Shown piece by piece: positions 2,319-18,423 of a stretch of DNA of 64,000 bases. A program made the position numbers and the translations under genes. The notes under the pieces were generated by a model. That model did not search any database and was not told where the DNA came from. It worked only from the letters and a program-made list of their open reading frames with translations. Source of the DNA: Dehalococcoidia bacterium UBA5620 (GTDB lineage: Bacteria; Chloroflexota; Dehalococcoidia; GIF9; UBA5629); NCBI GenBank assembly GCA_002423605.1, contig DIKK01000022.1, forward strand, positions 34,882 to 98,881, written 5' to 3'. The stretch's first letter is position 1; the number at the start of each line of letters is the position of its first letter.

Positions 2319-2579
2319 CATGGATTATGGTTCATATTAGATTGCACGGTAAGACATCACGCAATACTATTGCCTCCGTTGTTTATAGAATGCCCGATGT
2401 ACGCAGAGTAAGGCTTGCACGTTATTAAAAATATCAATAAAACAGCAACAAATCCTTTTCCGTGTTTCGCCCAATCATTCTTCTATATAATTGATGCCCT
2501 GTTTTAGACCCCCCTGTATCCCCATCTTCCCCTTCATCTGAGATTTCCAATTTTCCCTGGATGGTTTACGATTTTCAGC

Positions 2580-2753
2580 ATGGATAAACGCACTGAGCGT
2601 ATCTTTTACACGTTCAAAGAGGCCATGGAACATCTGGCGGTTAGCAGATACACGCTGCGCAAGCTGATGAGGTCAGGGCTACCGAGCCACAGGATAGGTA
2701 GGAAAATCGTGTTTCTGAAAGAAGATGTAGCGGACTGGATAAAAAGGCACTAA
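2580..2753 (+). CDS. Excisionase-like HTH DNA-binding protein, 57 aa, paralog 1
   Basis: MDKRTERIFYTFKEAMEHLAVSRYTLRKLMRSGLPSHRIGRKIVFLKEDVADWIKRH. Matches the excisionase/MerR-type HTH pattern. Shares a conserved leader (ttcccctggatggtttacgattttcagcaATG) with the copies at 6469 and 13351. Confidence 0.7.
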   Translation: MDKRTERIFYTFKEAMEHLAVSRYTLRKLMRSGLPSHRIGRKIVFLKEDVADWIKRH

Positions 2754-2878
2754 ATCTCATTCAGAACAGCAGTTTGATGCAAGAAACGCAAAATGATATT
2801 GTTAGGCACAGCCGGAGGCGCATAGTCGGTAAAGATAGTTTTCTGCTTACTTCTAAGTAAAAGGAGAATGCGATATAT

Positions 2879-3457
2879 ATGAGTGCAAGTATTATTGCGG
2901 CCATAGTAGTTATTATTGCCATTGAGTGTTACTACATAATATCGGAGATTAGGCTTGCCGCCCGCACTACACGGGGAACGGACAATACCCTTGATAAGGG
3001 AACGAGGCGACTTGTCTGGAGGCTTAGTGCAATCTCTTACAATATGGCGTGGATCCCCGTAATATTTGACTTCGGCCGCCTGATTATTCTGGGTGGCTGG
3101 CTAACATGGGTGGGCGTAGCTATCATGATTTTTGGTATTGTATTCCGGCAATATGCTATTTCTACCCTGGGGAAGTTCTTTACAGCAACAATACAGATTA
3201 AAAATGACCACGAATTAATCCAGACCGGCCCCTACCGCTATATCCGGCATCCGTCATACCTGGGAATACTCATCATGACCTTGGGTTTAGGAATTGCCCT
3301 AGCCAACTGGATTTCCCTGATACTATGTATAGTGCTTCCTACCATCGGCTTGATGCAGCGCATCAAGTTTGAGGAGAAGGAATTGGAACAGCACTTTGGT
3401 AACCAATACCAGGACTACAGGAAAAACACTTGGCGTGTTATCCCGTACATATATTAA
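2879..3457 (+). CDS. Isoprenylcysteine carboxyl methyltransferase (ICMT/PEMT) family membrane protein
   Basis: Multi-TM protein. C-terminal signature TGPYRYIRHPSYLGILI...EEKELEQHFG. Confidence 0.75.
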   Translation: MSASIIAAIVVIIAIECYYIISEIRLAARTTRGTDNTLDKGTRRLVWRLSAISYNMAWIPVIFDFGRLIILGGWLTWVGVAIMIFGIVFRQYAISTLGKFFTATIQIKNDHELIQTGPYRYIRHPSYLGILIMTLGLGIALANWISLILCIVLPTIGLMQRIKFEEKELEQHFGNQYQDYRKNTWRVIPYIY

Positions 3458-3514
3458 ATCGGGCTTATATATTGGACACAGGCCAGATGGAAGATGGGGA
3501 GGCACTACATCCCT

Positions 3515-3566
3515 CCTTTGACGCTTTCCCTGCCGCTTCCCGGCGGTGGTACTAACTGTGGCGACC
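3515..3566. repeat. R2 repeat copy: a highly degraded integrase 3'-end/att scar
   Basis: cctttgacgctttccctgccgcttcccggcggtggtactaactgtggcga. About 80% identical to the 3' tail of the integrase remnants (ttgacgctcccctgccgctcc...ccccgacggcagcac). Further copies at 4597-4648 and 8014-8065. Confidence 0.5.
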
Positions 3567-3652
3567 TGTCCCCTTAATCTACAGGCTGACATGGAAGCTG
3601 GACTGATTTTAGGGGGGCGGGTCAGGCTAGTACTACACGGGATGATGTGACT

Positions 3653-3817
3653 GTGTCTAGAAGTGACTTCAGCGAGAGCATGTGGTTTACATTTACCGAG
3701 ACCCAGGAGTTCTTGGATGTCAGACATCAGACTATATATAAGCTCATGGAATCGGGCTTGCCATCTCACAAGATAGGCAAGAAGCGGGTCTTTCTAAAGG
3801 ACGACCTGGTAGAATAG
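3653..3817 (+). CDS. Divergent excisionase-like HTH protein (GTG start 3653, or ATG 3680)
   Basis: ...MWFTFTETQEFLDVRHQTIYKLMESGLPSHKIGKKRVFLKDDLVE. Same fold signature (LPSH+IG+K+VFLK+D) as the 57-aa paralogs. Sits directly downstream of an R2 copy. Confidence 0.55.
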   Translation: MSRSDFSESMWFTFTETQEFLDVRHQTIYKLMESGLPSHKIGKKRVFLKDDLVE

Positions 3818-3917
3818 ATTAAAGAACACTAACCGAATTTAACTCCTAAACACTTAAGCTCTGTCATACTAAGGTTGCGATAGCGCTGTAATACTTTGTT
3901 ATGCCGCGACTCATTAC

Positions 3918-4334
3918 TTATTTAGTTAAGTGGTAGCCTTCATCAGTCAGTGCTTTTCTAGCAGCGTTTCTTTGGCCAAGAGAGGCTCCATTATTTCTGG
4001 CGAATATGAGCACCTTGTCGAGTATTGCCCTAATTCCAGCCTTATCATTGCGATCAGGTAATGTCCAAGAGGAGGAAGCACCGTCTTGGAATTCGATATG
4101 AAGCTGATTGTTATGAATCTGAGAGGTCATTCTTTGTTTGGCGATTGACCTACCACGTCCTGTTGAGGTTCGATAAGAACTTCCTCCGTCTCCAGTGAGC
4201 GTTTGAATTCCCTCATACGTCGAATTCGGAGGCAATTCAAATACACGTCTAAGAACGTCATCCTCAGTCTCTCCAAATTTACCACGACCTGCGATAGCTT
4301 GCCAGACTTCTTCAGATATTTTAATAGTACGCAT
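3918..4334 (-). CDS. Hypothetical protein, island cargo
   Basis: 138-aa ORF MRTIKISEEVWQAIAGRGKFGETEDDVLRRVFELPP.... No motif I can assign. Confidence 0.45.
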   Translation of the reverse strand: MRTIKISEEVWQAIAGRGKFGETEDDVLRRVFELPPNSTYEGIQTLTGDGGSSYRTSTGRGRSIAKQRMTSQIHNNQLHIEFQDGASSSWTLPDRNDKAGIRAILDKVLIFARNNGASLGQRNAARKALTDEGYHLTK

Positions 4335-4596
4335 AAGTAACTCCTTAATAAGTATTACTTCTTATATTATCACTACTTCTTATAGAAGTCAAGCGCCTTT
4401 TAAGATAAGTAAATCGGAATGTCCTATTTACAGGTAAGTTTTCCTACGTGTCGTTTGGTTGGGGGTGACTTCTATTGAATTAACTATTTAATAGCGAGGA
4501 TTGTATTTGAAATGATGACATGACGATGCAAGGGCACCAGCTTATACTGAGAGCACACATTATTAGGCCAACCTCATCTCAGCGGGTTCTCATCTC

Positions 4597-4648
4597 CCCT
4601 TTGCCGCTCCCGTGCCGCTTCCGCGCCGTGGTACTAACTGTGGCGATC
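4597..4648. repeat. R2 repeat copy
   Basis: ctttgccgctcccgtgccgcttccgcgccgtggtactaactgtggcga. Followed about 75 nt later by the tRNA-like fragment, the same arrangement as at 8014. Confidence 0.5.
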
Positions 4649-4728
4649 TGTGGTCACACGTATATTGGGCCAATACAGGACGGTATTTAATGATATTCCA
4701 CGGGATGGGACGGTATGTCTGGCTCATC

Positions 4729-4766
4729 GTTACGAAACCGCTGCTCTACCACTGAGCTACGCTGGC
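4729..4766 (-). other. tRNA 5'-half-like fragment (acceptor strand, D arm and anticodon loop; reads as Thr-CGU-like). Not an intact tRNA.
   Basis: Minus strand GCCAGCG TA GCTC AGTGGTA GAGC A GCGGT TTCGTAA, then no complementary anticodon-stem 3' strand, no T arm and no acceptor 3' strand. Lies 12 nt downstream of the integrase-remnant stop. Confidence 0.55.
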
Positions 4767-4781
4767 GCTCACGATGCAGGG

Positions 4782-4967
4782 TTAAAGTTTTGACGCTCCC
4801 CTGACGCTCCGGGCTACCCCCGACGGCAGCACTTCATCAAGTAACGCCATGGCATCTTCCTGCATGCCAGATATTATATGTGAATATGTATCCATGGTAA
4901 AGGCTACGCTGGCATGTCCCAGAGCCTCAGAAATCACCTTGGGCTTGGCTCCCACATGGAGTCCCAA
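4782..4967 (-). pseudogene. Tyrosine recombinase (phage-integrase family) C-terminal remnant
   Basis: ...KPKVISEALGHASVAFTMDTYSHIISGMQEDAMALLDEVLPSGVARSVRGASKL*. Carries the catalytic-Tyr box. Only about 60 aa; the upstream part is non-coding. Confidence 0.75.
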
Positions 4968-5250
4968 GTAATGGGAAACTATGCAGACCCGTCAGACCCT
5001 GCAGGTATGAATTTATAATCCTGGTGTGTGATGCAGCCCATTATTATTTTATTGCTATTGTCGCCATGTTTGAGACCCGGTGGGGGTCGCAGGAATCATC
5101 CGCATCCGTGGCATTATTGGAATACTGGATGCAGTCTGTGTGTGTTGCGGCCTGCTGTTTGAGCGTCAGCCGAGCGTCCGTGTATTTGGTCGTCAGGATG
5201 GACAGCGGGTTGGGAGACCGCCGTCCACTATACATCTCAATGCCCAGATT
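4968..5250. repeat. R3 conserved non-coding block, copy 1 of 2
   Basis: About 85% identical over ~250 nt to 11160-11400 (cagcccattatt.ttttattgc...ccatgtttgagacccggtgggggt.gcagga...). No convincing protein in any frame. Confidence 0.5.
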
Positions 5251-5439
5251 ATTGCATCTGGTGGGCAAAGGCCTATTCCAGATTGACCTGTTCTTGAGGT
5301 CATTGTGCTTGTGGGACTAGTTGAAAAAGTGGTATAAGTATTGACGGAAGGCTCAAGATGGCTTTGACAGGCGTTGACTTTGCATAACGTCAATATAGTT
5401 TATTACATCTATACAGTATAATATTGGCCCTGAGAATAG

Positions 5440-6201
5440 ATGCTAAAAAGAAAGAGGCAAAACTACTTCAGCCTAATTTTCTCAGTAATTACTGCCATCC
5501 TGTCGATAGCTGCCATCTGTATATCAATAATAGCTGTTCGTCAATCCGAAAAAGCAAACTTACTATCTGAAATCGTAAATTCACCTATTATCGTAGTGAC
5601 AAACACAAACGAATTTGATTTCGCTACCCGCCAAGGCACCGAGAAGGTATCCATCATGAATACTGGCGGCCCGATAAGAGAATATACCTCTGGTTTCGCG
5701 TATATAATAGAAATATACTGCGTCTGTAGAAATAGTGGAGGAATGTTTAATGAAGGGCTGGAGTTGGAATTTAACGGTTATTTCGATACGGTTCAACGAA
5801 GTAATTCTCTTCAAGGTATAATCGAAACTGCCTGGTGTGATAATAACTACGGTAAAGACCTGGCGCTAAGTGATGAATTTGACGACGCTGCTGCCAAAGA
5901 TGGCTATAGTTACAGCATCAGATCCCGTAAATTAGTATGGATTAGTTATAAAAATTTCTTAGGGAATGAATATATGAAAGCCTTTAGCATAAACCCTTAT
6001 ACTAATACGAATACGGCATCAGAAATACATTATCAATCTTTTAGAGACAAAGCGTTACTACCGTCCTTTATGAACGCGAATGAACCAAAAAGCAAAGGTG
6101 TATCTTGTGATTTAAATACAACCACAGGAACACAGCTATGGGACTGGTACAAAAATCGTGGATTAGGTGACGATTGTCGTTCTGATTGTGCTGGTAGATA
6201 G
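5440..6201 (+). CDS. Hypothetical membrane-anchored protein, island cargo
   Basis: 253-aa ORF with an N-terminal TM helix (LIFSVITAILSIAAICISIIAV), a Cys-rich C-terminus, and lower GC than the backbone. Confidence 0.45.
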   Translation: MLKRKRQNYFSLIFSVITAILSIAAICISIIAVRQSEKANLLSEIVNSPIIVVTNTNEFDFATRQGTEKVSIMNTGGPIREYTSGFAYIIEIYCVCRNSGGMFNEGLELEFNGYFDTVQRSNSLQGIIETAWCDNNYGKDLALSDEFDDAAAKDGYSYSIRSRKLVWISYKNFLGNEYMKAFSINPYTNTNTASEIHYQSFRDKALLPSFMNANEPKSKGVSCDLNTTTGTQLWDWYKNRGLGDDCRSDCAGR

Positions 6202-6468
6202 AATTGATAATCCGCTTCAGCACCTGACCTGCTTCCCAATACTCATACCATCTCTTAAGTCACTCCCACAAGCACTTAGGCATGCCAATAAACTGATTGG
6301 CATGCCCCCCGTGCTAGCTATAACATGCAGGGAAGGATCCGGGTTTGTTATTTAACCTATCATTGTTTATGCCGTTATCTCCAATGTTTTAGACCCACCC
6401 CCATATCTCCCATCTTCCCCTTCATCTTAGCTTTCCAATTTCCCCTGGATGGTTTACGATTTTCAGCA

Positions 6469-6651
6469 ATGGATAAACGCACTGGGCGTATCTTCTACAC
6501 GTTCAAAGAGGCTATGAATCATCTGGCGGTTAGCAGGTACACGTTGCGCAAGCTGATGAAGTCAGGGCTACCAAGCCACAGGATAGGTAGAAAGATCGTG
6601 TTCCTGAAAGAAGACGTGGCCGACTGGATAAAAAGGCAGAGCCCTCAGTAA
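6469..6651 (+). CDS. Excisionase-like HTH protein, paralog 2 (60 aa)
   Basis: MDKRTGRIFYTFKEAMNHLAVSRYTLRKLMKSGLPSHRIGRKIVFLKEDVADWIKRQSPQ. Same leader as paralog 1. Confidence 0.7.
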   Translation: MDKRTGRIFYTFKEAMNHLAVSRYTLRKLMKSGLPSHRIGRKIVFLKEDVADWIKRQSPQ

Positions 6652-6772
6652 TCCGAGCTTCCGCTAGATCGCATCACTGAAGGCCGGAGATGGCGATGCT
6701 ACCTGACTCGACGATTAAGAGTCCTTGTTGGCCATATTCTAGGCTTGCGTCAAATATATAAGCTAGGACTCT

Positions 6773-7933
6773 TTATTCGAACTTAAAGCCCTTATTCTTG
6801 AAAACTATCAAACAGGCATCCACTACATCGGCGTCGTAGAGTCTACCTCTGTTTTGTGAAATCTCCTCCAGTGCCTTATCTATGCCTAGCGCTGGGCGGT
6901 AAGGACGGTGAGAAGACATGGCCTCAACCACATCGGCAACAGCCAAGATTCTAGCCTCTAGGGAAATGTCTTCTCCAGAAAGACCGTTAGGATAGCCAGA
7001 ACCATTCAGCTTTTCATGGTGTTGGAGTATCGCCTGGGCAACTGGCCAAGGGAAATTTACCCCTTTCAGTATATCATGAGCGACTTGTGGATGAGTCTGA
7101 ATAATACCGAGTTCATGATTGCCTAACTTACCAGGTTTGCTCAAAATTTCGGATGGCACAGCTACTTTCCCAATGTCGTGGATGAGCCCTATAATACGTA
7201 TTCCCTCAATCTGGTCTTCTGAAAGACCCACCTCAGTGGCAATAGCACAAGAGAGCCGAGCTACTCGCTTTTGGTGAGATGCAGTATAGGGATCCCTGCT
7301 CTCACATAGGATTATTATGGAGTTAACGGTTTCACTAAACGTCACTCGTGAACTATCGAAATCTTGTAGAATTCCTGTTTCCCGTTTTGTTAGCCCTACT
7401 ACAGTAGCTGAGCGTCCTTCCATCTTGACAGAGAACTCAACCTTTCCATTAGTAATAACATTTCTGTCTTTGGCAGTAAAGAGCTTAATAGCTATATTAT
7501 CAGCCAGTTGCAGTTTATAAGTCTGTCCTTTATAAGCTTTGAACATCAGGAAAAACCATAGGAATAAGGTTAAGGCAATCACAATCCAGTACAAGACGAC
7601 TAGGAACCAATAGAGAGTATCATTGGCGATTTTAACTAAGCTCAGAACTATAATCGGCACGGTGAGTATTCCAAAGGTTACAATTGATTGACGAGCGTGG
7701 AAGCGAACGAAGCTATCTTCTCTCTTTATAATTAGCAGAATTATTCCAGATATCCAGCCAAGTGAATAGCAGAGAAGTCCAGCAATATTAGGTCGCAGGT
7801 AGGTAACAGCAGTTATATACCATACTCTTGTCTTACAGATCGCCACTTTACTGTTACGGTAAAGCTCTTTAATGTAATCGACTGCCTTTGTAACTATAAC
7901 GTTCACTGAATATCGCATCTCTCTAATTTGCAT
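6773..7933 (-). CDS. Membrane-anchored HD-GYP domain protein (predicted c-di-GMP phosphodiesterase)
   Basis: N-terminal TM helices. HD domain HDIGKVAVP ... HHEKLNGSGYP (HD-GYP signature). Confidence 0.75.
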   Translation of the reverse strand: MQIREMRYSVNVIVTKAVDYIKELYRNSKVAICKTRVWYITAVTYLRPNIAGLLCYSLGWISGIILLIIKREDSFVRFHARQSIVTFGILTVPIIVLSLVKIANDTLYWFLVVLYWIVIALTLFLWFFLMFKAYKGQTYKLQLADNIAIKLFTAKDRNVITNGKVEFSVKMEGRSATVVGLTKRETGILQDFDSSRVTFSETVNSIIILCESRDPYTASHQKRVARLSCAIATEVGLSEDQIEGIRIIGLIHDIGKVAVPSEILSKPGKLGNHELGIIQTHPQVAHDILKGVNFPWPVAQAILQHHEKLNGSGYPNGLSGEDISLEARILAVADVVEAMSSHRPYRPALGIDKALEEISQNRGRLYDADVVDACLIVFKNKGFKFE

Positions 7934-8013
7934 TATTATCCCATGCGCACTAAGCTGTCCCCAAGTATTTATACCACTTCCTAAGTTAGTCGTGCAAGAG
8001 ATTGAACTTACCC

Positions 8014-8065
8014 TATTTGGACGCTTTCCACGCCGCTCCCCGGCGGTGGTACGAACTGTGGCGAT
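8014..8065. repeat. R2 repeat copy
   Basis: tatttggacgctttccacgccgctccccggcggtggtacgaactgtggcga. Confidence 0.5.
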
Positions 8066-8147
8066 ATATGGTAACCCGTATATAAGACCAATACAGGGCT
8101 ATATCAAACAATATCTAACAGGATAGGATTGTATGTCTGGCTCCTCG

Positions 8148-8184
8148 TTACGAAACCGCTGCTCTACCACTGAGCTACGCTGGC
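8148..8184 (-). other. tRNA 5'-half-like fragment, copy 2
   Basis: Identical core to copy 1: GCCAGCGTAGCTCAGTGGTAGAGCAGCGGTTTCGTAA. Confidence 0.55.
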
Positions 8185-8199
8185 CCGCACGATGCGGGG

Positions 8200-8385
8200 T
8201 TAAAGTTTTGACGCTCCCCTGCCGCTCCGAGCTACCCCCGACGGCAGCACCTCATCAAGCAACGCCATGGCATCTTCCTGCAGCCCCGATATTATATGCG
8301 AGTAGACATCCATTGTAAAAGCTACGCTAGAATGTCCTAGGGCTTCTGAAATGACTTTAGGCTTTGCCCTACGCATCAAGGTCAC
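8200..8385 (-). pseudogene. Tyrosine recombinase C-terminal remnant
   Basis: MTLMRRAKPKVISEALGHSSVAFTMDVYSHIISGLQEDAMALLDEVLPSGVARSGRGASKL*. Confidence 0.75.
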
Positions 8386-8442
8386 TAGCGAAGATGTACC
8401 GTGGGTCGTGACTTATGCTCTCTAGGCTTGCCCGTCAGAGTG

Positions 8443-10665
8443 TCATTGACCATTTGATTCTGCAGTTCCTCTACTATAGCCTTCTTCTGCTAGCTTCTCC
8501 ATGATGCGGGCGGCTCTAGGGTAGCCGATACGTAGACGGCGCTGCAAAAAGGAACTTGAGATGTTTTTATGTTCTTGGGCTAACTGTCTGGCAGCTTCCA
8601 GCATTGCGTCTTCGCCGTTTTTTTCGGTTGAAGCAAGTTCACTCATCTCCTCGAATCTGAGTGGTTTCATCTCGGGTCTTTTTTGATTACCCCAGAACGA
8701 TACTATCCTCTCTATTTCAGCATCGGAGATAAAAGTCCCCTGAAGACGTTTTGGTTTGCTGGCATCTGTGGGCATATAAAGCATATCGCCTCTGCCCAGC
8801 AGCTTTTCAGCTCCAGCAGCATCAAGGATGGTTCTTGAGTCCACCTGTGAAGTGAGCGCAAAACTTATACGTGTTGGGAAGTTAGCTTTGATGAGACCGG
8901 TGACCACGTCGACAGACGGACGCTGGGTCGCTACGACCATATGGATACCGGTAGCCCGGGCTAGTTGAGCTAAACGGCAAAGAGTATGCTCCACCTCGTC
9001 GAAAGCTGCCATCATCAGGTCAGCTAGCTCGTCGATAACCACCACTATATAGGGCATTGTGTCTCCGTAATGTCGATTTGTGTTGTAGCTATCGATGTTA
9101 CGTGCGCCGGCCCGGGCGAACTTGTTATAGCGGTTGTCCATCTCCTGGTTAAGCCAACGTAACGCCAGGATTGCTTTATCAGAATCTACAACCACAGGAG
9201 CTGCCAGATGAGGCAGGCTATTAAAATTAACCAGCTCCACGCGTTTTGGATCAATCATAATGCACTGGACATCATCGGGGGTATTGTGGATAAGAAGGCA
9301 GCAGATGATCGAGTTGAGACAGGCGGTCTTACCACTGCCGGTGGCTCCAGCAATAAGCAGATGGGGCATTCTATCCAGATAGCCAGCTACTGTTTCTCCT
9401 CCAGCTCCCTTGCCCAAAGCCAGAGCCAGTTTTGATTTGGCATGCGCTTTTTGAAAGGCGGAGCTCTCAATTACGCCCCGCAGATTGACCAAACTAAAGG
9501 TAGTATTTGGTACCTCGATGCCTACCACTGATTTTCCTGGCACTGGAGCTTCGATTCTGATGCTTGGCGCAGCCAGTGCCAGAGCTAGGTCGTTAGCCAG
9601 GGCGCTAATACGGTCAACTTTAACTCTAGTTTTTGACACCTCCTCCAGGCGGGTTATATCATTGCCAAATTCATCGCGCTCTCGGATTTTTTTGTATTTG
9701 CGGTCCCATCCAGGCTCGACTCCGAACTGGGTTACGGTAGGGCCGACATTGATCTGGACTACTTTAGCCTCAACGCCGTAGCTGTTTATAGCTTCTTCGA
9801 TGAGCTGTGCACGCTTCTCAACATCACTCTGGTTTAGCTCTATTTCCGTGGGCTTATTCAGGATATTTACCGGGGGTAAGCACCAGCCACCGGTGGTAAA
9901 TATCGATTGGTATTTTCTTGGCTCCCATGACTCGGGAGCAGGTACTTTGCGTGTTGGTGGAGGGGTGACAAAAGGAGGTTCTGTGTTGGTCTGTTTTTCC
10001 TCGGGAACGTGCATCTCTGTTTTTAGAGGCGTGACACTAATGACTTCTGTAACCAGCTGTATTTCCCTGGGAGCTAGGGCTGCCAGTGCTGCTGCGGGTA
10101 TGATACTAAGGGCTTGCATAACTACCTGTATTTCCTTTGGGGAAGGCACTGCCGGTATTGCTGGGGGTATGATGCTAATGGCTTGTGAAACAGGTTGTTC
10201 TTCCTCGATAGCAGGTGCTTCGGCTGCAGGTTGAGGCGTGGCGATGATGTCTTGCATAGCTGGTTGCTCTTCCTCAGGAGCAGGCACTTCGTCTGTTGTT
10301 GGAGATGCACTACTGCGGGCTTGTGAAACAGGTTGTTCTTCCTCGGTAGCAGGTACTTCAGCTGCAGGTTGAGGCGTGATACTAGGGGTCTGCGTAACTG
10401 GCTGATTTTCCTCGACATTGGAAAGTCCGAAGAATTTTGTTACCGGGTCAGGTTTGGCTTTAGGCGGCCGATGGCCGGTGACACTTTGCGGTGTTGGTGT
10501 AGTTGATGGTCTGGTTGGTTGTGGCTTGTGAGGTTTCTGCTGCTGTTGTTCCGCTCGATGCTTGTTCCCAAAAAGTAAGCCACAACTCGGGCAGCGACCA
10601 GATGCCTTATTTGTCTTGATACCACATCGCGGGCAATCGTTAAGGTGGTTTGTAGCGTTGTCCAT
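8443..10665 (-). CDS. ftsK: FtsK/SpoIIIE-family DNA translocase with an N-terminal C4 zinc ribbon, no TM domain, and a long Pro/Glu-rich repeat linker
   Basis: CPRCG...CPSCG at the N-terminus. Walker A GATGSGKT, Walker B VVVIDELADL. C-terminal gamma-like winged helix (SSFLQRRLRIGYPRAARIMEKLAEEGY). Confidence 0.85.
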   Translation of the reverse strand: MDNATNHLNDCPRCGIKTNKASGRCPSCGLLFGNKHRAEQQQQKPHKPQPTRPSTTPTPQSVTGHRPPKAKPDPVTKFFGLSNVEENQPVTQTPSITPQPAAEVPATEEEQPVSQARSSASPTTDEVPAPEEEQPAMQDIIATPQPAAEAPAIEEEQPVSQAISIIPPAIPAVPSPKEIQVVMQALSIIPAAALAALAPREIQLVTEVISVTPLKTEMHVPEEKQTNTEPPFVTPPPTRKVPAPESWEPRKYQSIFTTGGWCLPPVNILNKPTEIELNQSDVEKRAQLIEEAINSYGVEAKVVQINVGPTVTQFGVEPGWDRKYKKIRERDEFGNDITRLEEVSKTRVKVDRISALANDLALALAAPSIRIEAPVPGKSVVGIEVPNTTFSLVNLRGVIESSAFQKAHAKSKLALALGKGAGGETVAGYLDRMPHLLIAGATGSGKTACLNSIICCLLIHNTPDDVQCIMIDPKRVELVNFNSLPHLAAPVVVDSDKAILALRWLNQEMDNRYNKFARAGARNIDSYNTNRHYGDTMPYIVVVIDELADLMMAAFDEVEHTLCRLAQLARATGIHMVVATQRPSVDVVTGLIKANFPTRISFALTSQVDSRTILDAAGAEKLLGRGDMLYMPTDASKPKRLQGTFISDAEIERIVSFWGNQKRPEMKPLRFEEMSELASTEKNGEDAMLEAARQLAQEHKNISSSFLQRRLRIGYPRAARIMEKLAEEGYSRGTAESNGQ
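10060..10420. repeat. Roughly 141-bp tandem DNA repeat, about 2.5 copies, encoding the FtsK linker repeats
   Basis: gcttgtgaaacaggttgttcttcctcg.tagcaggt.cttc.gctgcaggttgaggcgtg recurs at about 10178 and about 10319. Confidence 0.6.
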
Positions 10666-10907
10666 ATGGGATGGCTGTGGTGCCTTCTTTACGGCAGCCT
10701 TCTTCCTATAGCTTTTCCATGATTCTGGTGAAATGCATCAAATATTTGTACCACTTTTTGAGTTAGTCCTGCAAATATAATAGCCTAAGGAGCGAGTTAT
10801 CTTAGTTAGCATTCTTTAGTGCATGCCACTGTCTTTAACGATTCTCTGCCATTAAGGTTTAGTAGTGTTTTGTATTGTTACATAATTTGGGCTGTTGATG
10901 AGAGTAT

Positions 10908-10942
10908 CGCGAACCGCTGCTCTACCACTGAGCTACGCTGGC
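10908..10942 (-). other. tRNA 5'-half-like fragment, copy 3 (ends in the anticodon-loop region)
   Basis: GCCAGCGTAGCTCAGTGGTAGAGCAGCGGTTCG, then divergent. Confidence 0.5.
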
Positions 10943-10957
10943 ATGCACGATGCGGGG

Positions 10958-11179
10958 TTAAAGTTTTGACGCTCCCCTGCCGCTCCAGTCTACCCCCGGC
11001 GGCAGCACCTCATCAAGGAGCGAAATTGCATCTTCCTGCATCCCCGATATTATATGCGAATAGGTGTCCATGGTAAAGGCTACGCTGGCATGTCCCGGAG
11101 CCTCGGAAATGACCCTGGGCTTTGCTCCCACATGGAGTCCCAAGTAATGGGAAACTATGTAGACCCTGCAGGTATGCAT
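10958..11179 (-). pseudogene. Tyrosine recombinase C-terminal remnant
   Basis: ...IVSHYLGLHVGAKPRVISEAPGHASVAFTMDTYSHIISGMQEDAISLLDEVLPPGVDWSGRGASKL*. Confidence 0.7.
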
Positions 11180-11400
11180 CTATGCTCCGGGTTTGTGTTT
11201 CAGCCCATTATTGTTTTATTGCCATGTTTGAGACCCGGTGGGGGTAGCAGGAAACATCCTCACCTATGGCATTATTTGAATACTGGACGCGGTCTGTCGG
11301 TGTGTGTGTTGCGACCTGCTGTCCGAGCGTCAACCGAGCGTCAGGATATGTGGCTGTCAGGATAGACAGCGGATCAGCAGACCGCCGCTCAATATGCTGA
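11160..11400. repeat. R3 conserved non-coding block, copy 2
   Basis: See 4968-5250. Confidence 0.5.
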
Positions 11401-11786
11401 CGTTAATAACAGGTATAACATTAAGACCATTATCTGAAGCAGGCAGAATACAATACGGTATGACCTAATAGTGCACTTAGATATCGGCCTCCTGCTCTGG
11501 AAGCTGTATCGGTAGCATCTCCAACTCAAGAGGTGATACACTTCTTTGGGACAGGCCTAAGTAAATAATTCCGCTATAGTGAATCATTTTACGGGGCTAT
11601 CAGGACTCATCACTGGATATCGCTGACAGCACACCGGCATAGGTATTCATACTAGGCATTGAAAGAATAAATAAAGTATTGTAGAATTATGATGTAAGCG
11701 CAATTGAACCTATTCTTGGTGCAACCATTTTACTGGTCTAAGAATGTGTGTTATCTTATTTCTGGGTGTAAGATATTTAGTGGTAG

Positions 11787-13127
11787 ATGACGTTGAAACC
11801 TAGAGGACTGTTCGTAAAAAAGCAAGAAGCACCACTTCAACAGATTGCGGAACTTCCTATCCGTGAAGGTCTCCTGAATTATTTCGATGATCTTCCTATT
11901 GGCATAAATACCGTGGATATCCTGGGCAATTTTACCTATGTTAACAAGAGATTTCTGGAAGTATCAGGTTATTCCAAAGAGGAAGTTATTGGAAAGAACG
12001 GGTTAAAAATTGGCTTGTTTCCCCCAGATAGCTTAAAACGCTTAGCCAAAAGGATGCGGGCTAGGTTATCTGGAAAACCCTCGCAATATTTGGAGCTTCA
12101 GTTCAAATGCAAGGATGGCAGGTTGATCTGGGTAGAGCTTGAAGCTAGGTTGCTCAAAAATCATGGTTTTCCAATCGGCTTTCAAATTACTTCAAGGGAC
12201 ATCACCTATCGTAAGCAAGCTGAGGAGATGCTTGCCGACGAAGCGAACCGATGGCGTATGCTAATGCAACAGTCCAGAGACGGGATAGTTATCATCGATG
12301 AGGACGGCAAGGTGCATGAGGCAAACCAGCGTTTTGCCGAGATGCTCGGATATTCTCCCGATGAAGTCAGCCAGCTATACTTATGGGATTGGGATACTCA
12401 ATATACACGTGAGCAACTGCTCGAGATGGTGCGGACTGTTAGCGAGGCGGGCGACCATTTCGAGACATACCACCGTCGTAAGGACGGTACTACTATTGAT
12501 GTTGAAATCAGCAGCAATGGGGCTATGTTTGCAGGACATAAACTGATTTTCTGCGTGTGTCGTGATATAAGCGAACGCAAGAAGGCAGACGAGGCTATAA
12601 AGAGAGTTAATAAGCAGTTAATGGAATCGTCCAACCATGATATTATGACCGGCTTGCCAAATAGAAGGTTATTATATGAACATTTTGACATAGCACTGGC
12701 GAGTGCACAGCGAAACAAGAAAATACTGGCAACAATATCCCTCGATCTTGACAAATTCAAGGCTATAAATGACGCATTTGGTCATGACGTAGGAGATAAG
12801 CTATTAGTTGCCGCTGCAGACCGGATGACCAGCATTTTACGTAAGACTGATACAGTTGCCCGCATGGGCGGAGATGAATTTGTTGTGCTTTTATGGGATC
12901 TTGACCATAAAAGCACAACAGTTAAAGTTGCACAAAAAATATTAGAGGGGTTCCGACAACCGTTCAGTGTTGATGGTCACACGCTTAATAATACTGTCAG
13001 TGTGGGCGTCGCAATATATCCGGAAAATGGCAGTAACATCGAAGAATTGCTGAAGAGTTCCGATAAATCACTGTATCGAGTAAAAGAAAGTGGCAGGAAT
13101 AATTATCAATTGTCTGCTAGCAGCTAA
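11787..13127 (+). CDS. PAS-PAS-GGDEF diguanylate cyclase
   Basis: Two PAS blocks followed by GGDEF (RMGGDEFVVLL). The last ~450 nt are about 90% identical, in inverted orientation, to the 3' end of the 15469-18423 gene. Confidence 0.85.
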   Translation: MTLKPRGLFVKKQEAPLQQIAELPIREGLLNYFDDLPIGINTVDILGNFTYVNKRFLEVSGYSKEEVIGKNGLKIGLFPPDSLKRLAKRMRARLSGKPSQYLELQFKCKDGRLIWVELEARLLKNHGFPIGFQITSRDITYRKQAEEMLADEANRWRMLMQQSRDGIVIIDEDGKVHEANQRFAEMLGYSPDEVSQLYLWDWDTQYTREQLLEMVRTVSEAGDHFETYHRRKDGTTIDVEISSNGAMFAGHKLIFCVCRDISERKKADEAIKRVNKQLMESSNHDIMTGLPNRRLLYEHFDIALASAQRNKKILATISLDLDKFKAINDAFGHDVGDKLLVAAADRMTSILRKTDTVARMGGDEFVVLLWDLDHKSTTVKVAQKILEGFRQPFSVDGHTLNNTVSVGVAIYPENGSNIEELLKSSDKSLYRVKESGRNNYQLSASS

Positions 13128-13350
13128 TTCCGTAATTAAACGCAAAAGTAATCCCTTCTGCCATATCCGAGCAGATAACCTGTTTTACGCAGCGCTAGCT
13201 GGCTGTAACATGCATAGCTAAATCCGTGTTTGTCATTTGACCTGTCGTTCTTTATGCCGCCATCTCCCACGTTTTAGACCCCTGTATACCCCACCTTGCT
13301 ATTCATCTCAGCTTTCCAAATTTCCCCCGGATGGTTTACGATTTTCAGCA

Positions 13351-13523
13351 ATGGACAAGCGCACCGAACGGATCTTCTACACGTTCACAGAAGCTATGAA
13401 TCATTTGGCAGTCAGCAGGTACACGCTGCGCAAGCTGATGAAGTCAGGGCTACCGAGCCACAGATAGGTATAAAGATCGTGTTCCTTAAGGACGATGTGG
13501 CTGAGTGGATAAAGAGGCACTAG
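13351..13523 (+). pseudogene. Excisionase-like HTH gene, paralog 3, disrupted
   Basis: MDKRTERIFYTFTEAMNHLAVSRYTLRKLMKSGLPSHR* (TAG), then out of frame IGIKIVFLKDDVAEWIKRH. Confidence 0.6.
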
Positions 13524-13591
13524 ATTTTGTCACTGAAGGCTGGAGGCGAGCAGAGCAGTGATACTCCCTGAGTCGATGATTAAGATATAGT

Positions 13592-13879
13592 TTATGGGCG
13601 GTAAGTAGTCTCGGTACGGCGGGTTATCTGGATTATAAGCACCAACTTCTGAGAATCGTACACTTCGTAGACAACTCTGTAGTTGCCGGCTCTTATTCTA
13701 TAGGCTGCCTCGGCGCCTTTGATTTTTCTGACGCCATGGGGACGTGGTTCAACGGCTAAGGCTACAATGGAGAAGCTTAGACGCTCGAAATCGTGGAGTC
13801 GTATTCGGCCTTTCAGTTTTTGTAGGTCACGATCAGCGGCAGGTGATACTTCGATGCGGTACGCTTTTGGCTTGTTCAT
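13592..13879 (-). CDS. RelE/ParE-family toxin
   Basis: 95 aa, YRIEVSPAADRDLQKL...YRIRAGNYRVVYEV. Immediately downstream of a small RHH-like gene. Confidence 0.7.
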   Translation of the reverse strand: MNKPKAYRIEVSPAADRDLQKLKGRIRLHDFERLSFSIVALAVEPRPHGVRKIKGAEAAYRIRAGNYRVVYEVYDSQKLVLIIQITRRTETTYRP

Positions 13880-13887
13880 TGGCTGAA

Positions 13888-14148
13888 TTACGTTTTGCTT
13901 TCACGTTTGGTCAGCGCCTCTGTCATCTCCCTCTCTACCTCAGCCCAGGGACGACCACCTTTTTCCTCCCATTCAGCTCGGGCAGCATCGATTACAGGCA
14001 ATAGCTCAGCATCCTCCCTGTTTTCCAGCCACTCAAGTACAGCTTCACTGACTATATCGCTGGCAGGCTTGCGCCGCCTCACGGCCTCTACTTTCAGATT
14101 GGTGTAGAGGTCATCATCGTGAAAGACTACGGTCATTCTTCTGCTCAT
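13888..14148 (-). CDS. RHH/CopG-type antitoxin (start taken at MSRRM; the track ORF is longer)
   Basis: MTVVFHDDDLYTNLKVEAVRRRKPASDIVSEAVLEWLE. Confidence 0.55.
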   Translation of the reverse strand: MSRRMTVVFHDDDLYTNLKVEAVRRRKPASDIVSEAVLEWLENREDAELLPVIDAARAEWEEKGGRPWAEVEREMTEALTKRESKT

Positions 14149-14232
14149 CGGTATCCTCCATTCAAGCGTATAGGCATAAAAGCATACACGTGCATGTATT
14201 GTATCAATAGATGTTTTGGCAGTCAACTTCTA

Positions 14233-14502
14233 TCAGTCATATGTAGGTGGACTCGCCTCCTCCTTTGACATTTCCATGCCGCTCCGGGCCACCCCCGACG
14301 GCAGCACCTCATCTAATAGCGCCATGGCATCTTCCTGCATGCTATGATAGACGTCCATCGTAAAGGCAACGGAGGCATGCCTCAGGGCCTCGGAAATCAC
14401 CTTGGGCATTGATACCGAAGTGCGTGTTATAGATTTACGATACGATAACATTATGGGAATAGCCCATAATGTACTTGACAAAATATATAGTGTGCTGTAC
14501 AC
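14233..14502 (-). pseudogene. Tyrosine recombinase C-terminal remnant (diverged 3' tail, no adjacent tRNA-like piece)
   Basis: ...MPKVISEALRHASVAFTMDVYHSMQEDAMALLDEVLPSGVARSG.... Confidence 0.6.
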
Positions 14503-14534
14503 TTAGCATACGATACTATACAGGAGGCATCGGA

Positions 14535-14915
14535 ATGAAAATAAGTAGATATCGTATTTACAAGGCGATCATAGGAGGTGGGCTGGGTGCTGCTGTGGGA
14601 ATTGCGGTTGCTACTGACACCGCCATAATTGCGCTGGTGGCGGTTGTTGTAGCTATTGTAATTGCGGTTATTCTGGAACGTAGAAACAAGGAGATAGTTC
14701 GGGATGAGCGAATCTTGCAGATCGGCAGGAAAGCTACTTCTACCTCTTTCTATGGCATGCTTATTCTGGCGGGAGTCGCCTCATTGGGCACCGCCCTTTT
14801 CCGCAACCAGTTGCCGGAGAGTGTTGTTTTTGCTGGTTCTATCATGGGCTATTTTGTCTGTGTTGCATTAATACTATATATGTGTTTGTACGCCTATTTC
14901 AGCCGGAAGCTATAG
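14535..14915 (+). CDS. DUF2178-like small membrane protein
   Basis: MKISRYRIYKAIIGGGLGAAVGIAVAT..., three or four TM helices. Abuts an XRE regulator, the usual pairing for this family. Confidence 0.55.
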   Translation: MKISRYRIYKAIIGGGLGAAVGIAVATDTAIIALVAVVVAIVIAVILERRNKEIVRDERILQIGRKATSTSFYGMLILAGVASLGTALFRNQLPESVVFAGSIMGYFVCVALILYMCLYAYFSRKL

Positions 14916-14916
14916 G

Positions 14917-15162
14917 GTGCGACAGATGAAAAACAGGCTAAAGGTATTTCGTGCCATGCATGACCTCACACAGGAGGCGCTGGCCGATCAATTGCGCGTG
15001 ACCAGGCAGACGGTCGTTTCCATCGAAAATGGTAAATACGATCCTTCCCTGCCGCTTGCTTTTCGTATCGCCAATCTTTTTAATGTAAAAATTGAGGACG
15101 TCTTTTTATACGAAGGTGAACCGGGTGAATTTCATGGCTATCCACCCATGTCTAAGAAGTAG
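14917..15162 (+). CDS. XRE-family HTH transcriptional regulator
   Basis: LTQEALADQLRVTRQTVVSIENGKYDPSLPLAFRIANLF. Confidence 0.8.
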   Translation: MRQMKNRLKVFRAMHDLTQEALADQLRVTRQTVVSIENGKYDPSLPLAFRIANLFNVKIEDVFLYEGEPGEFHGYPPMSKK

Positions 15163-15227
15163 CGCCTATTTATATAGGGATACCATCTGCGCAGTTGTTA
15201 AAAGCCGTGCCAGGTGCAGAATCGATG

Positions 15228-15245
15228 CCACTGAGCTACGCTGGC
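15228..15245 (-). other. Truncated tRNA-like fragment (acceptor 5' strand plus start of D arm only)
   Basis: GCCAGCGTAGCTCAGTGG, then unrelated sequence. Confidence 0.4.
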
Positions 15246-15260
15246 ACGCACGATGCGTGG

Positions 15261-15420
15261 TTAAAGATTTGACGCTCCCCCTGCCGCTCCGTGCTACCCC
15301 CGACGGCAGCATCTCATCAAGGAGCGACATCGCATCTTCCTGCATGCTATGAGTAGACGTCCATTGTAAAAGCAGCTGAGCTATGTCCTAGCGCCTCCGA
15401 TATTACTTTAGGCTTTGCGT
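15261..15420 (-). pseudogene. Tyrosine recombinase C-terminal remnant, copy 5
   Basis: Complement encodes ...KPKVISEALGHSSAAFTMDVYSHSMQEDAMSLLDEM...; below the ORF-track size cutoff. Confidence 0.55.
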
Positions 15421-15468
15421 CTCTTAATGGCATATGACTGGCAAAGGTATTCTTAGGCTCTTTGATAA

Positions 15469-18423
15469 CTAGCAAGACTTATGTTTGGTGGGCTTTGTAT
15501 CTTGAGGTGGCGGGTTAAGGTTGCTGTAAGAGGAGAATTTATAGTTATCCCGGCCACTTTCCTTCACTCGATACATTGATTCATCGGAGCCCTTCAATAA
15601 ATCTCTAATGTCTTTGCCATCTTCCGGATATATTGCTATGCCCAAACTGATAGTGTTGTTAAGTGTATGACCATCGATAAGAAATGGTCGCCGAAATTCC
15701 TCTACTATCTTTTTTGCGACTTTGACCGCATCCTCCTTGTGGTCAACATCCCATAAAAGCAAAGCAAACTCATCTCCGCCCATCCGGGCAACTGTATCAA
15801 CCTTACGTAGAATGCTGGTCAGCCGGTCTGCAGCGGCAACTAATAGCTTATCTCCTACGTCATGACCAAGTGCGTCATTTATAGCCTTGAATTTGTCCAG
15901 ATCGAGGGACATTATTGCCAGCCTTTTCTTGTTTCGCTGTGCGCTTGCCAGTGCTATATCAAATCGGTCATATAATAACCTTCTATTAGGCAAGCCCGTA
16001 AGGGCATCATGGGTGACCAATTCTATTAACTCGTTACGGGCTTTTTCCAGACCTTTTTCTATCTCCTTGCGCTCGGTGATGTCCCTGGCTATACCGATGA
16101 CCGCTATAACCTTACCGTTGACATCTTTCACTGGGCTAAGGCTGGTGCTAGTCCACATACTTTTGCCACCGAGAAGCAGAGCCTCCTCTTTTTTAATATT
16201 CATTCCAGTTTCGAATACCTCCTGGATATTTTTTGACGTACTGGCAGCGATTTCGCTTGGGAATATTTCAGTAAGTGACTTACTGACCATATCTTCCGGC
16301 TTCTTGTGGAAAAGTCCGGCAGCGAAGATATTCATGGACAAAATTTTCATTTCACTATCGACCATAAATATTTGGTCAGATGCGGCTTCAATAATAGCCC
16401 TATATTTTGCTTCGCTTTCTTCTAGCTTCTCCCTCGCCTGCTTGCGCTCAGTGATGTCCCAGAAGATACCTATTAGGCCAGTGATATTGCCTTCTTCATC
16501 TCTGACGGGCACCTTAGTTGTGTGAACCCAGCTTTCTCTTTCGTCCTGTGTATACTCCTCTTCAATTTCTTCTATTCTGCCGGTTTCGATAATCTTTTTA
16601 TCGTCTTGCACATATTTTTCTGCCAATCCCTTGGGGTAGAAATCATAATCTGTCTTTCCAGCGATTTCTTCAGCTTTAATATTTAAAGCTCTAGCGTAAT
16701 TCTCACTGCAGGAAATATAAACTGAATTCTTATCTTTGAAAAATATCTTTTGGGGAAGATTCTGAAGAAGCATTCGATGCTTTTCCTCGCTCTGCCGCAG
16801 TGCTTCATCCGCCTTCTTGCGCTCGGTGATGTTTTCAAACACGACCACAAAATGGTCTCTTCGCGGACTATATATCGATATGGAAAGCCATATTCCCAGG
16901 GCATTAAAATAGGACTCAAAACTCTCTGGTATCCCGGTAGAAGCTACCCTACCATAGATTTCAAGGAATAGAGGGTCAGACTCTCTTATACCCGGAATAA
17001 CTTCGGATACCTTTTTCCCGGCAACATCCATCAAACCTGTTAGCTTTTCAAAAGCATCATTGACATCAAGATAGATAAAGTCTACGGGCTTATTTTCTTC
17101 GTCAACCAGTATCTTACAGAAGGCATACCCGTTGAGCATATTCTCAAACAAGGAGCGGTATTTCTCCCCTGATTCTCGTAATAACTCTTCTACCTGCTTG
17201 CGCTCAGTGATGTCAAGCAGCGTGCCAAACGTGAGCGTGGGTTTGCCGTCGACGTCATTGGATACAAAGCCAATGCTATGAACAAATCTAATGGCGCCAT
17301 CAGGCCTAACAACACGGTACGTAATATCGTGGGGTTTCGCTGCGTTTCCATCATATATATAAGTTTTGAATACGTCGGCACGATCATCTGGATGGACAAG
17401 ACTCTCCAGAATCTTCAGGTCAACCGGTGGCTTTTGGGATTGAATACCGAGGACGCGGCAGGCTCCATCAGACCAAGTTGTATAGCCACTTCTTAGGTCT
17501 TGACTCCAGAAGCCGAGATGTGCAGCCTGCTCGGCCAGCGTCTTATAAAGCTGTCCACTTTCCTGCGCCTTATCTTCGGCTTTAATACGGGATTCCGTAT
17601 ATAGGGATAGAATGTATCCGACTAAAGAGCCTGTGAAAATAAAAATAACTACTGAGATAAATTCATGAGCATCGCCAAATTGGAGTAAACTCTGAGGGAA
17701 TGTCTTATAAATAAAGATGCGATAAAAAATGTCTAATACATACCAAATCAGGATAGAACCAAGAAGTGATAAAATCATGATTTTCCCGTTTAAGCGGGAT
17801 TCCCTTTTTATTGCAAGGCCCAGCAATTGTCGAATGAATGGGACTTTCAGAATAGCTACATCAATGACTATATATAAATACATCAATGCCACACCTTTTG
17901 TTAACATCCCGGTTAGCACTGTTGCAGGTATTGATGTCTCAGCCTTTGGCTCCCAGAAAGGAGGATTAGACGAAAAGGCGACCGGATATAACAGGTAGCT
18001 GATACAGAAATATAGTAGTAAATAGGGGACGCTGATTAATAGGGGATTATTCCACAATGAAGGCCGCTTCTGCCTCAATTTTCCAAAATAACCCATCCAT
18101 GAAAACAATACAACATAGAGAATCGCCGTGACCAAATTGGCCCATCCGTTTGTTGGCCAAAGGATGAACGGGAAGAAGGCCCCCAATCCTACCACACCTG
18201 AAATTAAACCATATCTTCCACCGTATGCCATCCCTGCAAGAAGAGGGAACAGATAACTCCAAAGGATTGAAATAGAAAACGGTGGATTGTTGAATGACAA
18301 CGTGAATGAGGAGCATAAGAAACCTGCTAATCCAAGAATTATTGATATAACAAATTCTTTGGGTTTAAATAAACGCAGGTGAGAAGATTGCCGCTCGCCA
18401 ACCCTTTTGGTTTTACTGCCCAT
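15469..18423 (-). CDS. Membrane sensor diguanylate cyclase (multi-TM N-terminus, about four PAS, GGDEF)
   Basis: 984 aa with about 8 N-terminal TM helices, repeated PAS blocks and GGDEF (RMGGDEFALLL). Confidence 0.85.
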   Translation of the reverse strand: MGSKTKRVGERQSSHLRLFKPKEFVISIILGLAGFLCSSFTLSFNNPPFSISILWSYLFPLLAGMAYGGRYGLISGVVGLGAFFPFILWPTNGWANLVTAILYVVLFSWMGYFGKLRQKRPSLWNNPLLISVPYLLLYFCISYLLYPVAFSSNPPFWEPKAETSIPATVLTGMLTKGVALMYLYIVIDVAILKVPFIRQLLGLAIKRESRLNGKIMILSLLGSILIWYVLDIFYRIFIYKTFPQSLLQFGDAHEFISVVIFIFTGSLVGYILSLYTESRIKAEDKAQESGQLYKTLAEQAAHLGFWSQDLRSGYTTWSDGACRVLGIQSQKPPVDLKILESLVHPDDRADVFKTYIYDGNAAKPHDITYRVVRPDGAIRFVHSIGFVSNDVDGKPTLTFGTLLDITERKQVEELLRESGEKYRSLFENMLNGYAFCKILVDEENKPVDFIYLDVNDAFEKLTGLMDVAGKKVSEVIPGIRESDPLFLEIYGRVASTGIPESFESYFNALGIWLSISIYSPRRDHFVVVFENITERKKADEALRQSEEKHRMLLQNLPQKIFFKDKNSVYISCSENYARALNIKAEEIAGKTDYDFYPKGLAEKYVQDDKKIIETGRIEEIEEEYTQDERESWVHTTKVPVRDEEGNITGLIGIFWDITERKQAREKLEESEAKYRAIIEAASDQIFMVDSEMKILSMNIFAAGLFHKKPEDMVSKSLTEIFPSEIAASTSKNIQEVFETGMNIKKEEALLLGGKSMWTSTSLSPVKDVNGKVIAVIGIARDITERKEIEKGLEKARNELIELVTHDALTGLPNRRLLYDRFDIALASAQRNKKRLAIMSLDLDKFKAINDALGHDVGDKLLVAAADRLTSILRKVDTVARMGGDEFALLLWDVDHKEDAVKVAKKIVEEFRRPFLIDGHTLNNTISLGIAIYPEDGKDIRDLLKGSDESMYRVKESGRDNYKFSSYSNLNPPPQDTKPTKHKSC

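Follow-up and report, generated by a model that had tools for sequence, protein, structure and literature searches.

A small excisionase-family gene recurs with its upstream region in stacked relics of an integrative element family at a tRNA-Thr gene of a Dehalococcoidia bacterium

Why should one small gene, together with the sequence in front of it, come back several times over a short distance among neighbours that have nothing in common? This question is raised by the first part of a 64,000-nucleotide (nt) stretch of the Dehalococcoidia bacterium UBA5620 (Chloroflexota; GenBank assembly GCA_002423605.1, contig DIKK01000022.1, positions 34,882 to 98,881 of the forward strand), which is called the window below. 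A first-pass annotation, made from the sequence alone, described four loci there that encode excisionase-like helix-turn-helix (HTH) proteins of about 57 amino acids (aa), and all four (copies A, B, C and D) were found where it had placed them. Copies A, B and C belong to one gene, here named HTH1, and copy D belongs to a paralogue, HTH2. In the first ~15.5 kb of the window, relics of a single integrative element family are stacked in tandem, and HTH1 is a backbone gene close to the integrase-distal end of the element. The best explanation overall, which we hold with moderate confidence, is that of stacked elements in which HTH1 serves as a backbone directionality factor or regulator behind its own core promoter.

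Copy A (2580..2753, plus strand; 57 aa) is an intact Open Reading Frame (ORF) in the newest and complete element, E1; it matches HTH_17 with an E-value of 6e-12 and lies above the cut-off of TIGR01764. Copy B (6469..6651, plus strand; 60 aa) is also intact and sits in a remnant without an integrase body. Copy C (13351..13523, plus strand) was annotated as a pseudogene and is one: a single base is lost in CACAG^GATAGG, which shifts the frame and leads to a TAG stop at 13465-13467. The identical frameshift is present in two independent metagenome assemblies (loci L006 and L007; labels of this kind denote related contigs), so it is not a read error. In blastn comparisons among segments of the array, copies A and B share 90.6% of 254 nt (2500-2749 vs 6385-6638; E 4e-96), A and C 83.7% of 258 nt (E 1e-71), and B and C 83.2% of 327 nt (6313-6638 vs 13198-13519; E 2e-94), which is far above chance. 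After copy C was repaired by 1 nt, the proteins are identical at 53 of 57 residues (A and B) or 51 of 57 residues (A and C, B and C), and this range of 89–93% agrees with the figure of more than 85% given at first. Synonymous codon differences outnumber non-synonymous ones (11:4 for A and B, 19:6 and 15:6 for the other pairs), and purifying selection acted on HTH1 during the divergence.

The similar block consists of the upstream region and the gene only, except that B and C are also alike over ~60 nt downstream, as judged by eye in the alignment. Copy A lies between an HNH nuclease gene upstream and a methyltransferase-like membrane protein gene downstream, copy B between a 253-aa ORF and an HD-GYP gene, and copy C between a PAS-GGDEF gene and a ParE toxin pair. 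Because these flanking sequences are unrelated and the blastn matches stop at the edges of the cassette, the similarity is not part of a larger duplicated block, the source that the first-pass annotation had named as fatal to its view, and this source was ruled out. Copy B, still intact, and copy C, just inactivated, are probably cassette leftovers in older generations that have no integrase.

These generations are stacked at a tRNA gene. No tRNA gene was found inside the window, and the contigs that carry exact copies A and B extend to the left of it, where an intact 384-aa tyrosine integrase gene is followed immediately downstream by an intact tRNA-Thr(CGU) gene, 7–8 kb left of copy A (tRNA at 2102-2176 of L001, which re-samples the window's own genome). 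Rightward from the integrase of E1 follow genes for a 143-aa protein (p143), a Prim-Pol/AAA_25 primase-helicase, a 69-aa protein, Abi_C, a methyltransferase, an HNH nuclease and then copy A of HTH1; the Type II methyltransferase and the HNH nuclease occupy 643-2318 of the window. The insertion site is the anticodon loop of tRNA-Thr(CGU), and the elements replace the 5' half of the gene, so that the integrase stop codon is found ~20 nt upstream of the tRNA start (L001 2102-2260). Inside the window a fragment of this tRNA recurs on the minus strand, namely its first 37 nt, which reach from the acceptor stem through the D arm into the anticodon stem and loop, as far as TTCGTAA. Each fragment is preceded by the last 50–65 codons of an integrase, and since each abuts such a C-terminal remnant, each element brings a tRNA 5' half together with its integrase. 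These positions place the crossover, as read from the sequence, in the anticodon loop. Each new insertion rebuilds the tRNA-Thr gene and shifts the former 5' half, with the older element behind it, to the right.

The junctions can be followed along the window. At 3511..3655 the right arm of E1 is fused to copy D. The junction at 4593..4967 (minus strand) holds a right arm (4593-4729), an exact tRNA 5' half (4730-4766) and an integrase C-terminal remnant (4782-4967), and the next one at 8011..8403 (minus strand) repeats this order with a right arm (8011-8147), a second exact tRNA-Thr 5' half (8148-8184) and an integrase remnant (8200-8403). At 10906..11402 a diverged tRNA 5' half (10906-10942) and an integrase remnant (10958-11179), both on the minus strand, are followed on the plus strand by a repeated module and a non-coding segment (11184-11402) which are described below. 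Two older junctions lie at 14233..15475 on the minus strand, one marked by a lone integrase tail (14233-14502), the other by an 18-nt piece of the tRNA (15228-15245) with integrase remnants (15262-15475). By the Islander definition (PMC4383910), a tDNA island combines an intact tDNA, an integrase and a displaced piece of the cognate tDNA that keeps its orientation; the array presents all of these, and its displaced fragments are all on the minus strand. In the Islander survey, 5' tRNA fragments are a minority case (159 of 3919 islands), and arrays of three or more are rare (4 of 3919; PMC4383910).

Counted by integrase remnants and tRNA fragments, the junctions suggest about seven element generations: the complete element E1 (generation 1), the relic with copy D (2), the generation of copy B (3; 4730-8147), an FtsK-carrying one (4; 8148-10905), the generation of copy C (5; 10906-14232), and two more (6, 14233-15209; 7, from 15210 onwards). 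Three of them contain HTH1, one contains only the truncated HTH2 of copy D, and three contain neither. The earlier proposal that one copy marks each element generation is therefore true for three of about seven generations and fails for the others. In generation 4 the FtsK/SpoIIIE-family gene (8443-10665) is the sole large gene; it is called with 740 aa here and with 786 aa in another sample.

Does HTH1 belong to the element, or does it only travel with the cargo? The cassette is conserved while the flanking genes vary in every HTH1 copy, and six marker proteins, mapped on 44 loci by tblastn, keep a consistent order. In complete relatives (L013/L032 and L018) the order is integrase (minus strand), p143 (minus), PrimPol/AAA_25 (plus), variable cargo, HTH1 (plus), a zinc-ribbon gene (minus), HTH2 (plus), cargo and the right end. 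The triad of HTH1, zinc-ribbon gene and HTH2 is present in at least 14 loci, not all of them independent, since in several cases two loci are one contig retrieved twice; triad loci are L012, L013 (for example at 10001-10839), L014, L016, L017, L018, L024, L025, L027, L029, L030, L034 and L037. Its middle gene encodes a 106-aa zinc-ribbon/transmembrane protein on the minus strand, and both HTH genes are on the plus strand. HTH2 is 84–97% identical between assemblies (tblastn) and is better conserved than HTH1; the zinc-ribbon gene is wholly lost from the window. Between HTH1 and the right attachment arm lie 0.7–1.4 kb, which hold one variable cargo gene. The same design is seen in L012, which has an intact tRNA-Thr gene, an integrase remnant, an 11-kb island and a 46-nt repeat of the 5' part of the tRNA. 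A tyrosine integrase and HTH1 thus reside in one bounded element in L001, L013/L032, L018 and L012, as is asked of a recombination directionality factor (RDF). For the elements of the L013 type (integrase 58% identical, without tRNA-Thr), the attachment repeats were not found.

The window keeps a piece of the other half of this pair. Copy D (3647..3829, with an ORF at 3647-3817; plus strand) had been described as a divergent fourth copy at 3653. It is indeed there, but it does not represent a diverged HTH1: by tblastn it is 81% identical to HTH2 of related elements (L013) vs 53% to HTH1. The homology begins at about residue 11. In the alignment of three right arms, the arm at 3511 runs parallel to the arms at 4593 and 8011 until ~3655 and then, ~10 nt before it would reach the crossover site, passes into HTH2 at about codon 11. 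Copy D is therefore a 5'-truncated relic; its own 5' end is missing, the initial codons of the ORF derive from the adjacent right-arm spacer, and a TAG at 3815-3817 stands where a conserved Trp codon belongs. The arrangement indicates that this generation is older than E1 and that its tRNA fragment and integrase have been deleted.

What kind of protein HTH1 is can be told from profiles and from a predicted structure. Pfam HTH_17 (PF12728; gathering cut-off 27 bits) matches copies A, B and D with 46, 45 and 34.4 bits, and the excisionase-family DNA-binding domain TIGR01764 (NCBIfam cut-off 28.8 bits) matches HTH1 with 34.5 and HTH2 with 32.8 bits. The description as excisionase-like HTH proteins, which the first-pass annotation had made dependent on profile similarity, is borne out by both profiles. 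PHROG 66, annotated "excisionase and transcriptional regulator", also matches HTH1 (E 4e-10). An AlphaFold2 model of HTH1 with 28 relatives in the input (pLDDT 90.2) has a beta-alpha-alpha-beta-beta-alpha topology and superposes on the MerR/Xis winged-helix fold of excisionases. In Foldseek searches against the Protein Data Bank (PDB) the RdfS excisionase ranks first (TM 0.78), with E-values no better than 3e-3, a weakness to be expected from a query of 57 aa; it is followed by small-terminase DNA-binding domains, RacA, a MerR-family N-domain, BldC, Tn916 Xis (TM 0.66) and Pukovnik Xis (TM 0.71). From this ranking the fold is a minimal MerR/Xis winged helix, which serves recombination directionality factors and small regulators alike. 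By sequence, no relative with a solved structure was found in the PDB at E ≤ 1, and identity to any solved example is ~20%.

Other families fit less well. Phage_AlpA (PF05930) gave no match at E ≤ 1, and an antitoxin reading (AbiEi_4) was rejected at 15 bits vs a cut-off of 25. A full-length MerR regulator has a C-terminal coiled-coil dimerisation helix and an effector-binding domain, while HTH1 stops after the wing and one helix (57–60 aa). HTH1 thus joins the excisionase-family HTH proteins as a new member and is distinct from AlpA, from full MerR regulators and from MAD1 (see below). As a gene it is ordinary, and automatic annotation already labels its product an excisionase-family protein. 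Its subfamily is narrow, with 26 cluster representatives at E 1e-10 among 1.84 billion, and the relatives whose records name an organism all come from Dehalococcoidia or other Chloroflexota assemblies. A search of phage and plasmid records returned two weak phage matches (35–40% identity) and no plasmid match.

The sequence upstream of HTH1, called a leader at first, was reported to be more than 85% identical over ~110 nt. This holds for its last 40 nt only: within the window, identity is 93% at -1..-40, 72% at -41..-80 and 64% at -81..-120 (72–79% globally over -110..-1), compared with 70% at third codon positions. Across the family, homology extends to about -170 and the region is kept in 17 loci from different assemblies, bounded by unrelated sequence, in keeping with the earlier view that it is inherited together with the gene. 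Between loci the upstream identity is 65–74%, vs 65% at third codon positions and a background of 40%. The upstream regions of A (2447..2579), B (6313..6468) and C (13198..13350), all on the plus strand, consist of a proximal and a distal part.

The proximal part contains TTT[CT][CTA]A, a 17-nt (16–18) spacer and TA...T, ending 7–12 nt before the ATG, in 17 of 17 loci, which is the geometry of -35 and -10 hexamers; this pattern was chosen after the alignment had been inspected. In copy A, TTTCCA (2544-2549) and TACGAT (2567-2572) are 17 nt apart, with 7 nt to the ATG; in copy B they lie at 6432-6437 and 6455-6460, again 17 nt apart, with 8 nt to the ATG; in copy C they lie at 13313-13318 and 13337-13342, 18 nt apart. 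No Shine-Dalgarno sequence precedes the ATG. Since the hexamers end so close to the ATG, the mRNA would have no leader or hardly any, and the last ~45 nt are most likely the core promoter of such an HTH1 transcript, which means that the "leader" is probably not transcribed. Inverted repeats, proposed at first as candidate operators, were looked for in the three leaders and none is common to all; the words that the leader of A has in common with other parts of E1 are short matches at chance level.

Beyond this putative promoter, the next ~65–90 nt would be a module that the family uses elsewhere too. This distal part has a sharp left edge at an invariant AATCC and ends with GCCATGxTTTAGxCC; it lies at 2447-2510 before copy A, at 6333-6395 before copy B and, weakly preserved, at 13220-13280 before copy C. 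With nhmmer, further copies were detected at 5016-5077 and 11184-11235 of the window and at 6606-6670 of L001, as well as around single cargo genes in direct orientation in L017 (7838-7902, 8574-8636, 9827-9891), L013 (8788-8852, 9849-9907) and L014 (18342-18403, 19914-19978). This distribution suggests a cassette boundary or a reused promoter or operator; no operator-type repeat or palindrome conserved in the module was found. In three generations here the module precedes a conserved G-rich non-coding segment of ~165 nt, at 5078-5236 (with the module, 5016..5236 on the plus strand, the segment there being ~160 nt) and 11236-11402 of the window and at 6671-6838 of L001. Homologues of this segment are present in at least 8 related elements, always on the HTH1 strand. 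RNAalifold predicted 0 pairs on 10 sequences and Rfam had no match in 4900-5500 at E ≤ 1; the segment may serve as an origin or bind proteins.

Generations B and C share more than the HTH1 cassette. Positions 4736-5231 and 10912-11395 form one contiguous stretch, 83% identical, which runs from the tRNA fragment over the integrase tail and the same internal deletion junction to the non-coding segment, and the two generations carry different cargo despite this common junction. Both descend from one derivative that was already deleted and had no integrase, possibly a non-autonomous element. One could go further and take the module as a cassette boundary or recombination site for cargo swapping, and generations B and C as mini-elements that retain only the attachment arms, the non-coding segment and HTH1 and that the integrase of a complete element would move in trans; we regard this extended scheme as doubtful.

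The arms themselves contain a candidate protein-binding site. The paired motif AGCG[GT]C-N4-6-AGCG[GT]C occurs 9 times in the window, vs 0.06 expected from shuffles, and all occurrences fall within the array (3520-15288), with the two halves repeating at about one helical turn. Seven are on the minus strand, in integrase tails (4792-4808, 8210-8226, 10968-10984, 15271-15288) and in right arms, ~85 nt from the crossover (3520-3537, where it reads AGCGGC-N-AGCGTC, 4603-4619, 8020-8037); two are on the plus strand in the non-coding segment (5162-5178, 11326-11342) and so have the opposite orientation. Ten related loci have the motif at their right ends too (L012, L013, L014, L016, L017, L018, L024, L025, L030 and, from the window's own genome, L001), and some of them have a different integrase specificity. 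As it stands on both arms, it could equally be an arm-type site of the integrase or a site for the RDF.

What, then, is the job of HTH1? Family, fold and position point most likely to a recombination directionality factor, possibly with a second task as element regulator: HTH1 would bind direct-repeat DNA in the element arms and would assist the integrase in excising the element. Several observations weigh against this. The excision role is drawn from family membership and context, on the integrated map HTH1 is 7–8 kb from the integrase gene and not adjacent to it, and its fold is common to proteins that are not RDFs (BldC, RacA, MerR N-domains, small-terminase DNA-binding domains). In elements with two paralogues the putative RDF could be HTH1 or HTH2, if either. 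The occurrence of the arm motif on both arms and in the internal non-coding segment fits integrase arm-type sites at least as well, the hexamers match the sigma-70 consensus at 8 of 12 positions and were not listed by a consensus scan, and mobility today is putative, as three metagenome assemblies have the same array and neither an empty site nor a circular junction was found. A possible, though less probable, reading is that HTH1 acts in the manner of BldC or AlpA as a transcription factor of the element, for the replication and integrase genes and for its own promoter, and not as an architectural excisionase. The fold is almost as close to BldC, RacA and the MerR N-domain as to excisionases, a conserved promoter-like region of its own precedes the gene far from int, the PHROG 66 annotation names both functions, and the ~65-nt module, recurring before the second non-coding segment and beside cargo genes, could be a shared operator; the lack of a conserved operator-type repeat or palindrome in that module speaks against it. 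The two tasks are combined in known RDFs such as RdfS.

Three further explanations were considered. Copies B and C with their leaders might be neutral debris, alike through recent common ancestry and with an unconstrained leader, since C is frameshifted, the elements of B and C have no integrases, and leader identity at -41..-120 (64–72%) is no higher than at third codon positions in the window. This view is rather improbable in the face of a ~3:1 excess of synonymous over non-synonymous changes, of 93% identity vs 70% in the last 40 nt, and of an upstream region and hexamer spacing that are kept in 17 loci although the proteins are only 63–82% identical; the selection may have acted before insertion, so that copy B could be debris today. 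That the upstream region is a structured RNA leader or a small RNA, such as a riboswitch or an antisense regulator, is suggested by non-coding conservation over ~120–170 nt and by a 52-aa ORF called by the Joint Genome Institute (JGI) at 2475-2633 on the minus strand, antisense to the start of copy A. However, RNAalifold predicted 0 pairs on 15 leaders, Rfam has no match in the window at gathering thresholds, and the antisense ORF is probably spurious because copies B and C have no equivalent; we disfavour this explanation as unlikely. Least credible of all, and rejected, is a role for HTH1 in controlling a defence system, on the model of MAD1 in methylation-associated defence systems. Weak similarity (28.8–38.5 bits in NCBIfam, E 8e-7 in PADLOC) and the Type II methyltransferase and restriction endonuclease next to copy A recall it, but the score is far below the 80-bit cut-off of the family (NF047737), and the neighbours are unrelated in copies B and C and in all relatives.

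Compared with known systems, HTH1 comes closest to the MerR-type excisionases and RDFs, such as RdfS of ICEMlSymR7A, Tn916 Xis and mycobacteriophage Pukovnik/L5 Xis. It resembles them in size (55–70 aa), in fold, in the cut-offs passed and in its residence on an element with a tyrosine integrase, and RdfS is its best structural match. In contrast to them, its gene is distal to the integrase and not beside int, the identity to solved members is ~20%, and in relatives it usually occurs together with genes for a second paralogue and for a zinc-ribbon membrane protein. In P4-like islands (the Yersinia high-pathogenicity island), the small HTH directionality factors of the Hef/AlpA type also lie at the island end opposite the integrase; HTH1 has a similar position, with a match to HTH_17 only and none to Phage_AlpA. 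BldC of Streptomyces has the same minimal fold and size but is a chromosomal developmental regulator, whereas HTH1 is always within an integrative element.

At the level of the whole element, the nearest described analogue is the tycheposons of Prochlorococcus, which combine a tRNA-targeting tyrosine recombinase, a primase/helicase, an excisionase and cargo, and whose newer copies push older ones into the island, leaving partial tRNAs and degraded integrases (bioRxiv 10.1101/2020.12.28.424599). The gene set and the pushing pattern are the same here, while the phylum is different, the sequences are unrelated and the stack has about seven generations. The nearest analogue in the same bacterial class is the ssrA islands of Dehalococcoides, which stand in tandem at one small-RNA gene, use the serine recombinase DsiB at the 3' end of the tmRNA gene, and include integrase-less members interpreted as accreted or cis-mobilizable (PMC3146451); their gene module is different and no gene of the HTH1 type is described there. 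Our literature searches found no description of the present Dehalococcoidia element family.

The threefold feature of copies A, B and C is thus largely ordinary, successive integrations having left behind backbone genes of the excisionase family together with their probable promoter, and the value lies in the element context, where the module, the phased arm motif and the common deletion junction are most noteworthy. HTH1 anchors the definition of a Dehalococcoidia integrative-element family with a tyrosine integrase, a PrimPol-helicase, a distal HTH1/zinc-ribbon/HTH2 module, phased arm repeats, and defence and signalling cargo, and the window holds an unusually deep stack of it at a single tRNA gene. 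For the expression of the putative directionality factor, a near-leaderless transcript from the conserved putative promoter is a testable prediction, and the attachment arms offer candidate protein-binding repeats.

Two minor observations concern E1 and the cargo. Runs of the short repeats CTGTCTAC/GTCTACG at 3440-3540 and 6195-6240 of L001 flank the p143-PrimPol module of E1 and may be replication iterons. In the 446-aa PAS-GGDEF cargo gene upstream of copy C, the GGDEF part (12616-13114) is 83% identical by blastn, in inverted orientation, to that (16031-15533) of a 984-aa PAS-GGDEF gene at 15469-18423.

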